From positions 288,001 through 352,000 of the forward strand of contig CAWBMP010000005.1 in NCBI GenBank assembly GCA_963790025.1: 64,000 nucleotides of DNA, written 5' to 3'. Origin of the DNA: Nitrospirota bacterium. Its GTDB lineage: Bacteria > Nitrospirota > Thermodesulfovibrionia > Thermodesulfovibrionales > Dissulfurispiraceae. Below, piece by piece: positions 21,001 to 36,000 of this stretch. Position numbers: made by a program. The first letter of the stretch is position 1. Each line of letters starts with the position of its first letter.

Positions 21001-24000
21001 TTAGTATATAATCTTTAGTATATAGCCAATATGCTATTACCTGTATGTTAAGAGGGAGGATATCCTATGCTATCGACACGAAAACTTACGGAGTTGCCGT
21101 CATGGAAGGCGCTCGAAGACCACTACCGGAAGATTCAGGGCGTCCACCTTCGGGAACTATTTGCCGGCGATTTGCAGCGTGGCGAGCGATTCGCTGTCGA
21201 AGCATCCGGCATTTACCTTGATTACTCCAAGAACCGCATCACAGGTGAAACCCTTCGGCTTCTTTTCCAACTCGCTGAGGAGTGCGGTCTGCGCGAACGG
21301 ATCGATGCGATGTTCCGCGGAGAGGAAATTAATATTACCGAGAAACGTGCTGTGCTTCATATAGCTCTGCGTGCACCCCGGAATCAGTCGATCTTTGTTG
21401 ACGGTGAAAACGTGGTGACCAAGGTTTACAAGGTACTTGACAGGATGGAGGATTTCGTCAATCGCGTCAGGAGCGGAGAGTGGAAGGGACATACCGGCAA
21501 GCGTCTCCGCAATGTCGTAAACATTGGTATTGGTGGCTCTGACCTGGGTCCGGCCATGGCTTACGAAGCGCTGAAGCATTACAGCTCGCGCGATATGATT
21601 TTTCGTTTCGTTTCGAACGTGGACGGAACGGATTTTACCGAAGCGACGCTCGACCTCGATCCGGCAGAGACCCTTTTTATCGTGTCATCGAAGACTTTTA
21701 CAACCCTGGAGACGATGACGAACGCACACACTGCCCGTCGGTGGACGCTGCAGGCGCTGGGTGACGAGCGTGCCGTAGCGCGGCACTTCGTTGCCGTCTC
21801 AACCAATGCCGAAGAGGTGGCAAAGTTCGGCATTGACACCGCGAATATGTTCGGGTTCTGGGACTGGGTCGGTGGTCGCTACTCGATGGATTCAGCCATC
21901 GGGCTTTCGACCATGATCGCTGTCGGAGCCGAAAACTACCGGGCGATGCTCGCCGGTTTCCATGCTATTGACGAGCATTTCCGCACCGCGCCGTTCGAAG
22001 GGAACCTGCCGGTGCTAATGGGACTGCTCGCTGTTTGGTATAATAACTTCTTCGGTGCGCAGACTGTGGCCGTGCTGCCTTACGACCAGTACCTCAAACG
22101 TTTCCCGGCCTACCTCCAGCAGTTGACGATGGAGAGCAACGGCAAGCACTCAACGATAGACGGCTCACACGTCGATTACGAAACAGGCCCTATCTTATGG
22201 GGAGAGCCGGGCACCAATGGCCAGCATTCATTCTATCAGCTTGTCCACCAGGGGACGAAGCTTGTTCCTTGCGACTTCATCGGCTTTTGCAGAACGCTGA
22301 ATCCTGTGGGCAAGCATCACGATGTGCTTATTGCTAATCTTTTGGCGCAAACCGAGGCTTTGGCATTCGGCAAGACGGAAGATGAGGTCAGGGCGGAGGG
22401 AACACCGGAGTGGCTGGCTCCCCACCGCGTCTTTGAGGGCAACCGTCCTTCGAATACTATTCTCTGCGAGAAGCTGACGCCGGAGATGCTCGGTAAACTT
22501 GTTGCGCTTTATGAGCATAGTGTATTCACTCAGGGAACGATTTGGCTTATTGATTCCTTTGACCAGTGGGGGGTTGAGTTGGGCAAGGTCCTGGCGCAAA
22601 GAATCATTCCGGAACTTGAAAGCGCCGATGAGCCGCAGGCCGGGCACGATAGTTCGACCAACGCTCTTATGCGTCGCTACCGCAGGCTTAAAAAATGAGT
22701 GAATCAAAACGAGTCAGCAGTCCCATACACCGATTTCTTCCCTTTGAGGTCGATGGCTTCGATTCTCTTGTAGAGCTTGCCATGGACCTGCGCTTGTCGT
22801 GGGACCATCAGGCCGGCGAGGTATGGCAGCAACTCGATGCGGTGCTCTGGGACCTGACGCAGAACCCATGGGTCGTTCTTCAGACCGTCTCCAGGGACCG
22901 ACTTCAGCGCGTGTTGGATGATGCCACCTTCCGTAAGAAAGTCGATGACCTTTTGCAGGCAAAAAGTGAAGCGGCAGAATCGCCTTCCTGGTTTTCGCAA
23001 AATCATTCGGGTACCCAATTGAACAGCGTCGCTTATTTCAGTATGGAATTCATGTTGAGCGAGGCACTCCCGATCTATTCGGGTGGACTTGGTAATGTAG
23101 CCGGAGACCAGCTGAAGGCTGCAAGCGATCTGGGAGTTCCGGTAATCGGCGTGGGGCTCCTCTATCAACAGGGCTATTTCAGACAGGTAATAGACAGAAA
23201 TGGAATGCAACAGGCCCTCTTTCCCTATAATGATCCCGGTCAATTGCCTATTACGCCTTTGCGTGAGCCCGACGGAGAGTGGCTGCGTTTGAAAGTTGCG
23301 CTTCCCGGTTACTCCATGTGGCTGCGTGCCTGGCAAGTTCAGATAGGTAGAGTGAAGCTCTACCTTCTGGACAGCAATGATCCGGCGAACTTCCCGGCCC
23401 ACAGAGGAATTACAAGCGAGCTATATGGAGGCGGGCCTGAGCTGCGCCTTCTGCAGGAGCTGACACTAGGTATCGGAGGGTGGCGGCTGCTCAACATGCT
23501 CGGCATCAAACCCGATGTCTGCCATCTGAATGAAGGACATGCTGCTTTTGCGGTATTGGAGCGTGCCCGGTTTTTTATGCTGGAGACAGGGCAACCTTTC
23601 GAAGTTGCACTTGCCGTTACTCGTGCCGGCAACCTTTTCACTACCCATACAGCGGTCGCCGCAGGTTTTGATCGCTTTTCTCCTTCCCTTATGGAGCAAT
23701 ATCTCGGCAGATACGCCGGTGATAGGCTGGGCATCCCGTTCCATGACCTATTGGCCCTGGGCCGCCAGAACCCCAATGACTCCACGGAATACTTCAATGT
23801 GGCCTATCTCGCCCTGCGAGGGAGCGGGGCGGTCAACGGGGTGAGCCGATTACACGGACAAGTCAGTCGACGCATCTTTCAGCCCCTCTTTCAACCTTGG
23901 CCGGAGGTCGAAGTGCCGGTCGGGCATGTTACTAACGGGGTCCATATGCCGACCTGGAATTCAGAGGAGATCGAAGTACTTTGGACAGGGGCCTGTGGAA

Positions 24001-33000: not shown

Positions 33001-36000
33001 TATGGGCACGTCCTCTCCGCGATCATCCCGATGCCTCCATATATAATCCATCAGGCTGTGCATTTCCGCATCAAACAGATACCGGGCATTATTAATGGAC
33101 GCTCCGAGATCGGTGCCGGAATGTACCTCCCTCAGTATTCCAAGGAAATGCTCGAAATCGTGAATGAGCGCATCTTTCAGGTGAGGAATGAACTCCGGGC
33201 TGGATATTATCGGGCGCTCATAAGTTTCCAGCCGTTTCCGCGGAACACCGCCTTCTTCGAGTCTCTTATAGAACAGATCAAGCTTCCCGTCACTTCTCAG
33301 GAATTCCAGGTAGGCCTCACATATGACGATATCGTCGGGCGTGGCGTTGTTATGGAGTTTCTGGTGCCATTCCTCCATAAAATGTCCCGCCATCTCTTTG
33401 ATGTGGTGGCGATGCATGATATTCAGTATCTCGTCGCGGACCCGCTGGGCGTCCTTCCCGGTGCCGAGCGTTGTCATCATCAGGCGGATGAACTCGCGCT
33501 CCCCCGGCTCAAGGATGTAGCGGCCCGCAAGCTTCAATGTAAGGCGGTCCATGGCATGGCCTAATTCGCGCGGTTTGGTATTATAGTTTCGCTGCCAGTC
33601 CAGTTGCCTGATATAAGAAAAGCGCAGCCAGACATAAAGAAGGGCAATGCCGTCGACGTCATTGCTTGCAATCCCGTCCAGCAGGTCGTAACAGAGATTT
33701 AACCTGTGCATCAATGTCCATGAATTGCGGCCAATTTCATTTTCGATTATTTTATCTGTAATGGCGGCAAGTTCGAGACTTTCTGAAAAAGCCTCCTGTC
33801 CGGAAGACGGAGCAACGGGTATGAAAAAGTTTTGTCCCTTATCTTTTATCCAGCGCCCTGTATCGCTTTGCTTTAGAACAAACCAGATACCCAGGGGCGC
33901 TTCGTCTTCGCTGGAATCAAGGAGCAGCAGGCTGGTACCATCGCTATAGGCGCTGTCGGCAAATGGCGTCTGGGCCGCTGTGTCCTGGAATACGGTTGTA
34001 CCGGGAGGCCGAAGAGAGGATTGCGGCAAAACCCATTCATGGCGCGACTTATATGCTGCTCCCCAATGCAGGATCAGGGGGCCCCGTATATCGGCAAGCA
34101 GTGCAATAATGTAATGCCTCTTGTCTTTGGTCACAACAACAGCCAGTTGCCCTTCATCAAGCCGGTACGGGCGTTCATAAACGATCTTTTCCTGATCTAC
34201 CGCTTTTTTAAGTTCTTCGATTAAAAGCATGTTCTCATGTAATGCCTTTCCTCTCGATCATCCGGAAATGATCAGCGAATATCTTGCGGAAATGAAAGCC
34301 GTATATCGAAAACGTTATGGCCAGAGGGAACAGTTTCGGATGCCTGAAAAGGGACCAGAAGAATAATCTCCAATAATAGAAACGCTCTTTCCCTATTATC
34401 CCGAGTATGAGCACAGACTTAAATCCTGCTTTAACATAGCTGTACCGCATATGGATTACATTTTTCTGGACCGGCCTGTACTCTCGCAGGAACAGTTTGA
34501 CCCGCTTATAGTAATTTTTTGGAGAATAGATTGTATCGATGATTTGTTTATAGCCTGTGATTAGTCCTTCGTAGTTCATCTTTGGAATGAAGTTCATTGA
34601 AAAGTCCGTATTGTCCCCCGACACAGCGTTCAACAACCTGTTTTCTCCGACCAACCGGTGATAGAGCTTTGTCCCACGCGGCGCATTCAGGAGTCCTACC
34701 ATTGCCGTCACAATCCCGCTCTCCTGGATGAACCCTATCATCTTCTCAAATATCGAGGCCGGGTCTTTATCAAAGCCGACGATGAACCCGGCCTGGACCT
34801 CAAGCCCGAAACTTTGTATCTTCCTGACACTCGCTATAAGGTCCCTGTTCCTATTCGGTATTTTTGTGCATTCAAGAAGGCTTTCCTCGTTGGGAGACTC
34901 GATGCCAACAAAAACAGTACTGAACTCGGCCCTCGCCATCATTTTCATGAGGTCCTCGTCGTCGGCCAGATTGATGGACGCTTCGGTCGAGAGCGTAAAA
35001 GGATGCCTCTTCAGGTCCATCCATTGGATAATCGACGGCAGTATCTCCTCTTTCAGTTTCTTCCTGTTCCCGATGAAGTTGTCGTCAACGAAGAATACCC
35101 CGCCCCTCCAGCCGAGAGAGTAAAGTTTCTCCAGTTCGCCGATTATCTGACCGTTGTTTTTTGTCCTGGGGACCCTGCCGTATAGTGAGGTTATATTGCA
35201 GAATTCGCAATCAAAGGGGCACCCCCTCGAATACTGGATATTCATGGAGGCGTAATCCTTCATGTTTATAAGCTCCCACAAGGGAATGGGCGTGGTCGTC
35301 ACATCGGCCCATTTATTCGATGTGTAGAGACTTTTGGGCCGTCCCTCTCTCAAATCGTTCAGGAACGGATGAAGCGTAATCTCCGCCTCGTTGAGCACAA
35401 GATGGTCTATGTCGGGAAACTCTTCGTGATCATTGGTAAAGAGCGGGCCTCCGGCAACCACTTTAACGCCTGCGGCCCTGCATCGTTTGATAACGGTTTT
35501 TGCCGATTCCTTCTGTATGGACATAGCGCTCAGAAAGACATAATCCGCCCACAGAAGATACTTGTCTTTCAGTTTCCGGACATTCATGTCCACGAGCTTT
35601 TTCTCCCATTCGCATGGAAGCATTGCTGCCACTGTCAGCAGCCCGAGTGGCGGATTGACGGCTTTCTTTGATATGAACTCGAGGGCATAGGAAAAACTCC
35701 AGAAGGTATCGGGATATTCCGGATATATAAGAAGGACTTTCATTGAAAACTCCTTATGGATAAATGGACAGGTTAATACGCTCGATGGAATCGACTGAAG
35801 CGCCAACTATGACGATGAATACGGAACGTCTCACTAATGAGAATTATAACACAATTCTTCTACATTACTTGTCATTAATAGCTGAATCAAATGTTCGGGC
35901 CGTTAGTCCATAGATGGTTTTTGGGTTGCCGGAGGTATAAATACTCTTACTGTTGTACCCCTGCCTTCGGCCCCGGTAATCTCCACTGCCCCTCCCCAGG

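Follow-up and report, generated by a model that had tools for sequence, protein, structure and literature searches.

The window, by which the whole analysed stretch of 64,000 nucleotides is meant, carries a minus-strand operon (34230-25251) of four genes, in the order GWD-type alpha-glucan, water dikinase (GWD), PWD-type dikinase (PWD) with an N-terminal barrel fused to it, an unannotated protein (U355) and a GH13-family enzyme. Successive genes overlap by 8, 74 and 4 nt. All features are listed in Table 1. The host is a sediment bacterium.

Table 1. Features at the dikinase locus (positions in the window)
Feature	Position	Strand	Basis or remark
Glucose-6-phosphate isomerase (PGI)	21067..22698	+	NF001211, E 1.4e-256; Pfam PGI
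Alpha-glucan (maltodextrin-type) phosphorylase	22695..25244	+	TIGR02094, E 1.3e-233; Pfam DUF3417 + Phosphorylase
GH13-family enzyme, 430 aa, last gene of the operon	25251..26543	-	Pfam hDGE_amylase 2e-21, Alpha-amylase 2.3e-11
U355, 355 aa, divergent endonuclease-IV-like metal TIM barrel	26540..27607	-	Second barrel of the operon
PWD-type dikinase, 1168 aa, fused to a barrel	27534..31040	-	ORF 27534..31157, conserved start at 31040
Dikinase part of the PWD-type protein, residues ~301-1168: helical region, phospho-His domain, ATP-binding domain	27534..30140	-	Pfam
Predicted catalytic His766 codon, PWD-type protein	28743..28745	-	Motif LAHLAVRARQ
N-terminal AP_endonuc_2 (endonuclease-IV-like) TIM barrel of the PWD-type protein, residues 1-270	30231..31040	-	Pfam PF01261, E 6.3e-21
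GWD-type alpha-glucan, water dikinase, 1065 aa	31033..34230	-	ORF, Pfam and PDB match
Predicted catalytic His646 codon, GWD-type protein	32293..32295	-	Motif LSHLAVRARN
Ig-like/CBM45_2-like glucan-binding module of GWD, residues 25-139	33814..34158	-	Pfam PF23166, E 2.8e-26
B12-binding radical SAM gene	34235..35806	-	Pfam; 4 nt upstream of GWD

The GH13 enzyme is intact, with all four GH13 regions (DLVINHC, GFRCDAA, FAETLG and FPESHD), and matched the PDB entries 3dhu (3.4e-22) and GlgE 5cgm (4.9e-16). The genome-wide survey's note had grouped an alpha-amylase-family gene, a gene of unknown function and an alpha-glucan phosphorylase with the dikinases. All three are present, as is PGI, but the phosphorylase stands apart from the operon and is convergent with it on the plus strand, its start overlapped by 4 nt by the end of PGI. 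This convergent arrangement was found again only at locus L006, and a phosphorylase match lay within the flanks of 6 of 80 loci. The B12-binding radical SAM gene was near GWD in 5/80 loci, one of them by a weak match (L057, 76 bits), and is probably outside the conserved module. No RNA run containing the locus was found.

The two dikinases

Both dikinase ORFs described in the survey's note were recovered, their Pfam sets were the same on a rerun, and the phospho-histidine motif is kept in each. The GWD-type protein has the domain order of plant and algal GWD1 (EC 2.7.9.4; potato StGWD1, PDB 9HA9/9QVI), namely one CBM45_2-like Ig domain (Ig_N_CWD1), a central helical domain, a phospho-His domain (GWD1_pHisD, 2.3e-34, residues 583-696) and an ATP-binding domain (PPDK_N, 5.8e-27); the name CBM45_2-like was taken from the available passages of PMC13553574. 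The Ig-like module aligns to residues 431-560 of cotton GWD1, and both have the motifs LHWG and WIK. The reported match of the central domain (residues 156-579) to the potato GWD crystal fragment 9ha9 was reproduced at E 1.7e-82. His646 shares its alignment column with the His of DVLSHVSVRARN of plant GWD1 and GWD2, and its context, DVLSH(L/V)(A/S)VRARN, is common to plant and algal GWD1.

A search matched the GWD-type protein to cotton GWD1 (P0146) at 41% identity (797.7 bits, E 1.3e-234). Aligned identity was 40.1% to cotton GWD1 (1014 aligned columns) and 40-43% to plant and algal GWD, in all about 40% over ~1000 residues, whereas the adjoining PWD-type protein reached 25.3%, so that its reported closeness to plant GWD was borne out; BLASTP between the two neighbours gave 26% (E 5e-57). 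The segment FRSDSNGEDLxGYAGAGLYDS is common to the GWD-type protein and eukaryotic GWD and absent from PWD types in the alignment. In the window's GWD nothing corresponds to the first ~410 residues of plant GWD1 (its transit peptide, CBM45_1 and a linker), which leaves a single CBM45-like module, whereas many of its bacterial relatives have two. The CFATC redox motif is a feature of land-plant GWD1; its position reads ILFAVC here. Unlike the plant enzyme, the window's putative GWD shares an operon with partners specific to bacteria. We strongly infer that it is a glucan dikinase working through His646.

In the PWD-type protein, AP_endonuc_2 is followed by GWD1_pHisD (1.6e-22, residues 705-811) and PPDK_N (8.4e-37, residues 850-1155). 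It appears to resemble plant PWD/GWD3 (EC 2.7.9.5) in this phospho-His and PPDK_N core, in the His of LAHLAVRARQ, in lacking the GWD-specific insert and in adjoining a GWD. CBM20, the N-terminal module of plant PWD, was absent by Pfam and its place is filled by the metal-binding barrel; in some relatives U355 is joined on C-terminally as well. There was no significant match to the potato GWD central-domain structure. The JGI-given names of homologues were all 'phosphoglucan, water dikinase', and the best named ESM Atlas cluster, taken as a lead only, was Streptophyta, with CBM_20 in 12% of members. These indirect indications make the product a candidate PWD orthologue.

Two endonuclease-IV-like barrels

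The N-terminal barrel of the PWD-type protein is followed by a Ser/Thr/Ala linker. In an alignment of 42 sequences (A2), E36, H75, H109, E140, D171, H174, H200, H202, H204, E205, D209, D211, H213 and E247 were invariant, and the A2 profile matched 3wqo (7.3e-13) and endonuclease 4 (5zhz, 1.5e-4). The AF2 model (pLDDT 86.4) had 3wqo as its best Foldseek match (E 7e-12). U355, for which the Pfam scan gave no match, is a second, cryptic endonuclease-IV-like barrel recognised here, with a helical insert of ~60 residues between strands 6 and 7.

Each barrel family has 14 invariant His/Asp/Glu residues, which in the models sit at the C-terminal ends of the strands and align to the HAP, VH, LEN, DxxH and DxH positions of endonuclease IV and ASFV AP endonuclease, which we take to be the ligand positions of endonuclease IV; U355 reads DH at the DxH position. 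Against the endonuclease IV/AP_endonuc_2 superfamily (E. coli Nfo, M. tuberculosis End 5zhz, ASFV AP 6khy, MJ1311 3wqo, CbiR), the barrels are only 13-20% identical, and their partners, whether linked or fused, are glucan enzymes instead of DNA repair genes. The CbiR phosphodiesterase was a weak match (E 2.5e-5). A span of ~3 Z units covers the closest structural neighbours: MJ1311 (3wqo, function not assigned), the epimerases of sugars and sugar phosphates (UlaE and ketose 3-epimerases), and endonuclease IV. The fold by itself does not settle the function.

Distribution and co-occurrence

The arrangement GWD, barrel, PWD, U355, GH13 was seen again among Nitrospirota, Thermodesulfobacteriota, Acidobacteriota and Chloroflexota MAGs, and loci of Verrucomicrobiota and Scalindua (Planctomycetota) have parts of it. 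Where the sequence ran on for at least 7 kb downstream of GWD (47 loci), the barrel was found there in 40, the GH13 gene in 33 and PWD in 27. GWD1_pHisD occurs in all nine other genomes of the genus, as reported; for the class the count is 98/390, the earlier figure having been 89.

U355 tracks PWD across genomes. It was present at 26/27 PWD-positive and 1/20 PWD-negative loci and, class-wide, in 32 of 40 two-dikinase genomes, 2/58 with one dikinase and 0/292 without, counts in which related genomes are non-independent samples. Of 9 phylogenetically independent pairs differing in PWD, 7-8 showed a matching difference in U355 and none an opposite one (median p 0.008); joint loss may be one deletion, because the two genes are adjacent. 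A C-terminal U355 fusion was seen in 12 of the 120 PWD-type clusters listed, 10 of which joined barrel, PWD and U355, and U355 was fused to the GH13 enzyme at 5 loci. The barrel itself was found in 87/98 dikinase-positive and 5/292 dikinase-negative genomes of the class. The exceptions are 11 dikinase-positive genomes without the barrel and 8 two-dikinase genomes without U355, 2 of the latter accounted for by 66% completeness or a contig end.

A proposed glucan phosphorylation cycle and its alternatives

The glycogen pathway is complete in the genome (glgA twice, glgC, glgB, glgX, GH77 and GH57), and potato GWD1 phosphorylates glycogens too, according to the passages available of PMC13553574. 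A bacterial GWD and PWD pair within an alpha-glucan gene cluster would imply phosphorylation of a storage glucan. The survey's note had proposed that the storage glucan is phosphorylated before breakdown, which fits every in-silico test run (domain order, catalytic His, central-domain homology, greater closeness to eukaryotic GWD than to the paralogue, synteny across phyla, glycogen pathway), although the phosphorylase stands outside the operon. Its report that a SEX4/laforin-type phosphatase is missing also holds, as DSPc was not found in the genome (98.8% complete).

Our best reading, offered tentatively and with slightly more doubt than confidence, is that the operon encodes a cytoplasmic, ATP-driven cycle of phosphorylation, degradation and dephosphorylation, the last on inferred grounds, acting on the cell's own ADP-glucose-derived alpha-glucan. 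The GWD-type enzyme would transfer the beta-phosphate of ATP through His646 to a glucosyl residue (in plants at C6), with AMP and Pi set free, and the PWD-type enzyme may then place a second phosphate through His766 on the already phosphorylated glucan (C3 in plants). The phosphates would loosen packed chains, so that both the GH13 enzyme and the phosphorylase encoded convergently could act, and the product of the latter would pass through PGI to glycolysis. The two barrels, each with a His-rich, probably trinuclear metal site, are candidate stand-ins for the SEX4 and LSF2 phosphatases and might take off the phosphate esters. The barrel after GWD, here fused to PWD, would serve GWD, and U355 would serve PWD. 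As with SEX4 and LSF2 in plants, two enzymes would remove C6 and C3 phosphate and let degradation go on, each barrel being genetically tied to one dikinase; the plant enzymes and laforin are Cys-based DSPs, whereas the barrels are metal-dependent TIM barrels of unrelated fold and chemistry and their shared role is hypothetical.

It is possible, if rather doubtful, that the dikinases phosphorylate the storage glucan while the barrels are sugar or sugar-phosphate isomerases, epimerases or lyases of the xylose-isomerase-like superfamily, which process phosphorylated breakdown products (e.g. 3-phospho- or 6-phospho-glucose, phospho-maltodextrins) or modify the glucan itself. Sugar epimerases of the superfamily score as well as endonuclease IV against the barrels: UlaE, L-xylulose-5-phosphate 3-epimerase, was matched at E 2.4e-11 (TM 0.66-0.71) along with many ketose 3-epimerases in Foldseek, and the nearest sequence relative, MJ1311, was deposited as 'D-tagatose 3-epimerase-like protein'. 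The 14 invariant residues of each family, however, far exceed the Glu-Asp-His-Glu set of these epimerases, the extra ones fall at positions aligned to endonuclease IV and ASFV AP endonuclease, and the genome holds no other DSP-type glucan phosphatase candidate. An improbable reading is that the dikinases act on another glycan (capsule, envelope) or a small molecule and share only the scaffold with GWD and PWD. NCBIfam matches show related PPDK_N/phospho-His scaffolds that phosphorylate rifampicin or pyruvate or are prodigiosin ligases, and the lack of CBM20 and of a match to the potato central domain in the PWD type would suit this. Against it, the GWD-type protein still has its CBM45_2-like module and a complete counterpart of the potato GWD central domain, an intact GH13 enzyme ends the operon with glucan phosphorylase and PGI alongside, U355 is fused to GH13 enzymes elsewhere, and no obvious signal-peptide-like N-terminus was seen by eye in the four operon proteins.

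To our knowledge, the prevailing view restricts glucan phosphorylation to eukaryotes, and the survey's note accordingly held it to be confined to those that make starch. Bacterial GWD sequences, however, already stand in the tree of GWD by Cenci et al. 2018, whose Fig. 9 legend attributes them to LGT into bacteria (PMC6260743); in the parts of the sources available, this legend was the single mention of bacterial GWD genes found in print. The passages of two 2026 texts (PMC13666283; bioRxiv 10.64898/2026.09.25.754361) had the content that the note implied. The LGT attribution would agree with the genes being passengers of a recent transfer from eukaryotes, or assembly contamination, with no integrated role, which is disfavoured and very improbable. 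They lie on a 639-kb contig of a genome with 1.2% contamination, their GC of 0.50-0.55 is close to that of the surrounding window (0.45-0.52), and they are intact, overlap their neighbours, have bacteria-specific partners and are kept across the genus and in part of the class. A FastTree rooted on PWD types places the bacteria inside paraphyletic eukaryotes, as a transfer would have it, whereas a site-heterogeneous model recovers the bacteria as a clade sister to that of canonical eukaryotic GWD.

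Locus layout and genomic setting

The genes and sites discussed here are collected in the following table. The ORF of the 1168-aa PWD-type protein extends to 31157, and the start at 31040 was chosen as the one conserved in 42 aligned relatives.

Features of the dikinase locus and its surroundings (window positions)
Feature	Position	Strand	Remark
Y1 transposase ORF, IS200-like, 288 aa	17439-18305	+	
PGI	21067-22698	+	overlaps phosphorylase by 4 nt
Alpha-glucan phosphorylase	22695-25244	+	end 6 nt from end of 430-aa gene
GH13 enzyme, 430 aa	25251-26543	-	last of five tightly packed minus-strand genes
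U355 (gene without annotation), 355 aa	26540-27607	-	overlaps GH13 gene by 4 nt
PWD-type dikinase, 1168 aa	27534-31040	-	overlaps U355 by 74 nt
Linker between barrel and PWD	30141-30230		equivalent to split point in four relatives
GWD-type dikinase, 1065 aa	31033-34230	-	overlaps PWD-type gene by 8 nt
Codon of GWD His646	32293-32295		
B12-binding radical SAM gene	34235-35806	-	4-nt gap to GWD start
CHASE-domain histidine kinase	35903-37768	-	
432-aa protein	37860-39158	-	
Phosphofructokinase	47119-48213	-	
Short phosphorylase-family gene, 568 aa	59720-61426	-	Pfam Phosphorylase E 1.2e-24

Phosphorylase and PGI lie on the plus strand and the phosphorylase ends 6 nt from the end of the 430-aa gene, so the two units are convergent and phosphorylase with PGI forms a unit separate from the dikinase operon. 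The genome-wide survey's note had placed the phosphorylase in one alpha-glucan operon with the dikinases, an amylase-family gene and the 355-aa gene; the latter two do belong to the minus-strand operon, but the phosphorylase was rejected as a member, because it is encoded on the other strand and seldom lies next to the module elsewhere. The radical SAM gene was likewise rejected as part of the module, since it was found near GWD in only 5 of 80 related loci, with one of these matches weak.

The radical SAM protein has a DUF4070 C-terminus and a weak likeness to PhpK-type P-methyltransferases (E 5e-20, far under the cut-off). Just upstream of its gene, the CHASE-domain histidine kinase stands beside a 432-aa protein with only weak HTH_32/HTH_28 matches, possibly a transposase or a regulator; a CHASE-kinase match was also found near GWD in the related locus L006. 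The second, shorter phosphorylase-family gene of the window has similar counterparts upstream of GWD in the related loci L003-L005. The Y1 transposase ORF exceeds the 121-position Pfam domain.

The assembly comprises 3.45 Mb in 5 contigs (98.8% complete, 1.2% contaminated), and GC content was 0.48-0.55 at 20-36 kb versus 0.45-0.52 elsewhere in the window. In a scan of 20500-39500, 19 sites resembled promoters and 24 resembled terminators; shuffled sequences gave 19.7 and 20.6, so no signal was obtained. Searches of sequencing runs for the locus returned no RNA run and one DNA run, a freshwater sediment metagenome. Glucan genes of the genome itself include two glgA over the cut-off, one glgC, a GH13 branching enzyme, the glgX debranching enzyme, a GH77 glucanotransferase and two clear GH57 genes with a third weak match, and ADP-glucose-based alpha-glucan storage is therefore in place.

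The two dikinases and the GH13 enzyme

The GWD-type dikinase has the Pfam domain set listed in the survey's note, namely Ig_N_CWD1 (E 2.8e-26), a phospho-histidine domain (PF22973, E 2.3e-34) and an ATP-binding PPDK_N domain (PF01326, E 5.8e-27), and its C-terminus was aligned with plant GWD end to end. The central helical domain was matched by phmmer to the potato GWD crystal structure 9ha9_A (E 1.7e-82, residues 156-579 versus 24-466), a match also reported there. In the alignment, His646 pairs with the histidine of the plant motif DVLSHVSVRARN, and GDEEIP upstream of it corresponds to plant GEEEIP. A passage of the StGWD1 structure paper gives H992 as the catalytic histidine and E971 as the assisting residue (PMC13553574).

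Ig_N_CWD1 is the one predicted glucan-binding module of the protein and pairs with the CBM45_2 region of cotton GWD1. StGWD1 has two CBM45 modules; the window GWD has no CBM45_1 equivalent, and nothing in it corresponds to the initial ~410 residues of plant GWD1. The land-plant motif CFATC, presumably with a redox role, reads ILFAVC in the window GWD and is incomplete in the algal sequences too.

Among 1.84 billion cluster representatives, 6042 relatives of GWD were found at E <= 0.001. Cotton chloroplast GWD1 (cluster representative P0146) was 25th among the 150 matches listed, with 41% identity and E 1.3e-234, and the JGI names of GWD relatives were all ‘alpha-glucan, water dikinase’. In an eight-sequence alignment the window GWD was 40.1% identical to cotton GWD1 (1014 columns), 40.0% to Nymphaea GWD2, 43.4% to Picocystis, 39.4% to Cyanidium and 33.7% to the apicomplexan Cyclospora, versus 25.3% to the neighbouring 1168-aa protein. 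The protein is thus nearer to eukaryotic GWD than to its own paralogue (39-43% for plants, green and red algae and 34% for Cyclospora, versus 25% for the PWD type).

The PWD-type protein also agrees with the earlier domain listing, with AP_endonuc_2 at the N-terminus, phospho-histidine domain PF22973 (E 1.6e-22) and ATP domain PF01326 (E 8.4e-37); His766 is the predicted catalytic residue. The GWD-specific stretch FRSDSNGEDLxGYAGAGLYDS is missing from it, and no significant match to 9ha9 was obtained. Plant PWD carries CBM20; no Pfam match to CBM_20 was found in the PWD-type protein. A figure legend in a 2026 review (PMC13666283) is less specific, with starch binding by GWD and PWD given as ‘via a CBM domain’. 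At E <= 1e-10, 1122 relatives were retrieved, mostly of ~1150 aa with the same AP_endonuc_2 N-terminus. JGI names among the relatives listed (about 38 rows) were all ‘phosphoglucan, water dikinase’, and no identifiable plant PWD was present among the best 120 of the 1122. As a lead, the dikinase part lay nearest (0.97) in the ESM Atlas to a wholly eukaryotic, mostly Streptophyta cluster with CBM_20 in 12% of its members.

The 430-aa protein keeps DLVINHC, GFRCDAA, FAETLG and FPESHD, which we take to be GH13 regions I-IV with the Asp-Glu-Asp catalytic residues. Its nearest structures were the Lactobacillus alpha-amylase 3dhu (E 3.4e-22) and GlgE maltosyltransferases (E 4.9e-16). Judged from its sequence, the GH13 enzyme is catalytically intact, which is new here.

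Gene linkage and the endonuclease-IV-like barrels

A pattern scan with one genome per species returned 129 relatives, and 80 loci were retained. Each comes from a MAG or another uncultured assembly, mainly of Nitrospirota (Thermodesulfovibrionales), Thermodesulfobacteriota/‘Deltaproteobacteria’, Verrucomicrobiota, Scalindua, Acidobacteriota, Chloroflexota and Nitrospinota. BLASTP with the window proteins against all stop-to-stop ORFs gave one recurring order of GWD, AP_endonuc_2 barrel (free or fused to PWD), PWD, U355 and GH13. Linkage was counted where the locus extends 7 kb or more beyond GWD on the downstream side; of these 47 loci, 40 have the barrel, 33 GH13 and 27 PWD. U355 was found in 26/27 PWD-positive and 1/20 PWD-negative loci, and seven PWD-negative loci keep both barrel and GH13, which shows that PWD and U355 are gained and lost together as a cassette while the genes on either side persist.

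On a FastTree of 45 GWD rows (L065, L080 and L081, loci without a full-length GWD ORF, were dropped and the window added) PWD presence changes at least 11 times. Nine independent pairs differed in PWD; U355 differed in the same way in 7-8 of them and in the opposite way in none (median p 0.008). PWD and U355 are adjacent and one deletion can remove both, so these contrasts show a unit and not, by themselves, a biochemical link.

Class-wide counts were made in 390 genomes including the window's own, with cut-offs of E <= 1e-20 for U355 and E <= 1e-40 for the barrel family. GWD1_pHisD was present in 98 genomes and U355 in 34: 32 of the 40 genomes with two GWD1_pHisD matches, 2 of the 58 with one and none of the 292 without a match. 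The PWD-type barrel family occurred in 92 genomes (87/98 dikinase-positive, 5/292 dikinase-negative); in one single-contig genome (G151) GWD and barrel are both present, 650 kb apart. Fusions point the same way as the co-occurrence. U355 forms the C-terminus in 12 of the best 120 PWD-type clusters, ten of which are barrel::PWD::U355 proteins of about 1490-1530 aa, and is fused to GH13 in 5 loci. Co-occurrence, independent contrasts and fusions tie U355 specifically to the PWD-type dikinase, a result new here.

By sequence, U355 gave no Pfam match even at E 10 other than DUF4817 at 0.1, no NCBIfam match and, with a 30-sequence profile, no PDB match at E <= 1; it was placed only through profile-profile and fold comparison. 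Profile-profile alignment with the PWD N-terminal barrel gave 94.7% probability (E 6.3e-8, 109 columns). The AlphaFold model (pLDDT 91.4, pTM 0.90) is a xylose-isomerase-like TIM barrel whose top Foldseek match, though a weak one, was E. coli endonuclease IV (E 2.5e-5, TM 0.43-0.52), and sugar epimerases, isomerases and dehydratases also score among its structural neighbours. The gene without annotation is a second endonuclease-IV-like barrel, which is new here. Invariant among 30 homologues from related loci are H72, H105, D106, E140, D168, H171, H233, H235, D238, H240, D252, H253, E302 and H304.

The 42-sequence profile of the PWD barrel matched MJ1311 (E 7.3e-13) and endonuclease 4 (E 1.5e-4), and its model (pLDDT 86.4) was nearest to MJ1311, UlaE, ASFV AP endonuclease, ketose epimerases and endonuclease IV. 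Its invariant residues are E36, H75, H109, E140, D171, H174, H200, H202, H204, E205, D209, D211, H213 and E247. The invariant residues sit at the C-terminal strand ends of either model, and in the printed alignments they pair with HAP, VH, LEN and DxxH of endonuclease IV and DRH of the ASFV enzyme, which we take to be ligands of the endonuclease IV three-metal site. Enzymes of the Endo IV type use nine His/Asp/Glu ligands for three metals. Both barrel families show invariant residues in the corresponding order; six positions line up with those of M. tuberculosis Endo IV, and the DxH position lines up with that of the ASFV enzyme. The modelled fold, the xylose-isomerase-like TIM barrel of the Endo IV-type superfamily, can be taken as settled, and the barrels probably have a His-rich multi-metal site. 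They may plausibly act as phosphoesterases; DNA cleavage at abasic sites is not expected, as the gene context speaks against it.

The barrel::PWD fusion is intact in the window and in the related loci L006 and L009. In four others, with GWD 71-73% identical, barrel and PWD are separate ORFs (L003, 13925-16180; L004, 13922-14784; L005, 13919-15088; L007, 10426-16492), split exactly at the Ser/Thr/Ala-rich linker by 0.9-6 kb of unrelated DNA. Both halves are intact in these relatives, so an unfused barrel is functional too. The L003 gap contains an IS200-like Y1 transposase, also oversized (323 aa), and an RHS-repeat fragment, and that of L007 a GNAT acetyltransferase, a 969-aa dCache-PAS hybrid histidine kinase and a DUF5666 protein.

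Proposed role and evolution

The ORFs, domains, histidines and neighbours on which the survey's note based its main interpretation were all recovered, and from these sequences we infer, as it did, that the GWD- and PWD-type enzymes of this bacterium phosphorylate its storage glucan. By definition, GWD (EC 2.7.9.4) turns ATP, glucan and H2O into AMP, Pi and C6-phosphoglucan, and PWD (EC 2.7.9.5) modifies pre-phosphorylated glucan only, at C3. Its statement that this step is confined to starch-making eukaryotes reflects the prevailing view, and recent literature regards the two dikinases as characteristic of eukaryotes that store starch; bacterial GWD homologues are, however, mentioned in one line of a GWD tree legend in the 2018 Goniomonas genome paper (PMC6260743). 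A passage of the 2026 review calls the machinery behind phosphate in prokaryotic glycogen unknown (PMC13666283), and a section of a recent text counts few starch-like prokaryotes, some Verrucomicrobia included. Full-text searches of the openly readable literature turned up no work on what bacterial GWD or PWD does, on its operon or on its partners. The searched text of the StGWD1 structure paper (PMC13553574) and of a plant GWD evolution paper contained no word beginning with ‘bacteri’ or ‘prokaryot’, and the dikinase in two matched Verrucomicrobia papers was pyruvate, phosphate dikinase. A conserved bacterial operon with both dikinases makes the question of prokaryotic glycogen phosphate testable, and supplies small enzymes without introns that could serve structural studies and starch engineering.

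A wider reading, possible but on balance doubtful, is that bacteria have a full, reversible cycle of glucan phosphorylation, with the endonuclease-IV-type barrels as position-specific phosphatases, the GWD-paired barrel removing the C6 phosphate and the PWD-paired U355 that at C3. Its carriers, among them Thermodesulfovibrionia, Desulfobacterota, Verrucomicrobiota and anammox bacteria, would then store a partly crystalline, starch-like glucan whose mobilisation depends on the cycle. The phosphatase step of eukaryotes belongs to SEX4, LSF2 and laforin (DSPc), whereas trinuclear-metal TIM barrels would perform it in bacteria. As had been noted earlier, a SEX4/laforin-type phosphatase is absent, with 0 DSPc matches at E <= 0.001 in the genome (98.8% complete) and none by Pfam among the operon proteins. 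The barrels would represent a new, non-DSP class of candidate glucan phosphatases, and if the cycle reading is true, starch-type phosphorylation would not be a eukaryotic invention tied to plastid endosymbiosis.

The bacterial enzymes bear on the evolution of starch metabolism, for which two trees were computed; a branch with support 100 separates PWD types from all GWD rows in both. A 181-row FastTree rooted on bacterial PWD types placed all 70 bacterial GWD rows (the window and 69 MAG loci) in one clade with support 98, and eukaryotic GWD outside it as a paraphyletic group. In a 52-row IQ-TREE quick search (LG+C20, 926 columns), canonical eukaryotic GWDs from land plants, green, red and glaucophyte algae, a cryptophyte, an apicomplexan, a dinoflagellate, a ciliate cluster and two unnamed rows formed one clade (SH-aLRT 95), whose sister group (support 80) was a clade of 19 bacterial rows (support 94). 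The topology thus depends on the model, and as bacterial and canonical eukaryotic GWDs are sisters in the better-model tree, neither origin can be taken for granted.

Outside both main IQ-TREE clades were five anonymous representatives and a short algal GWD-like clade (support 99). The latter contains the proteins P0209, P0192, P0211, P0180, P0218 and P0239 (1018-1108 aa), from a glaucophyte, a cryptophyte, a green alga and a haptophyte. Another protein, P0126 from a Gloeochaete transcriptome (1177 aa), shows 46% identity to the window GWD and the pair of Ig domains that bacterial GWDs of ~1160 aa typically have, yet the IQ-TREE places it among eukaryotic GWDs; it may be a contaminant or a genuine intermediate form.
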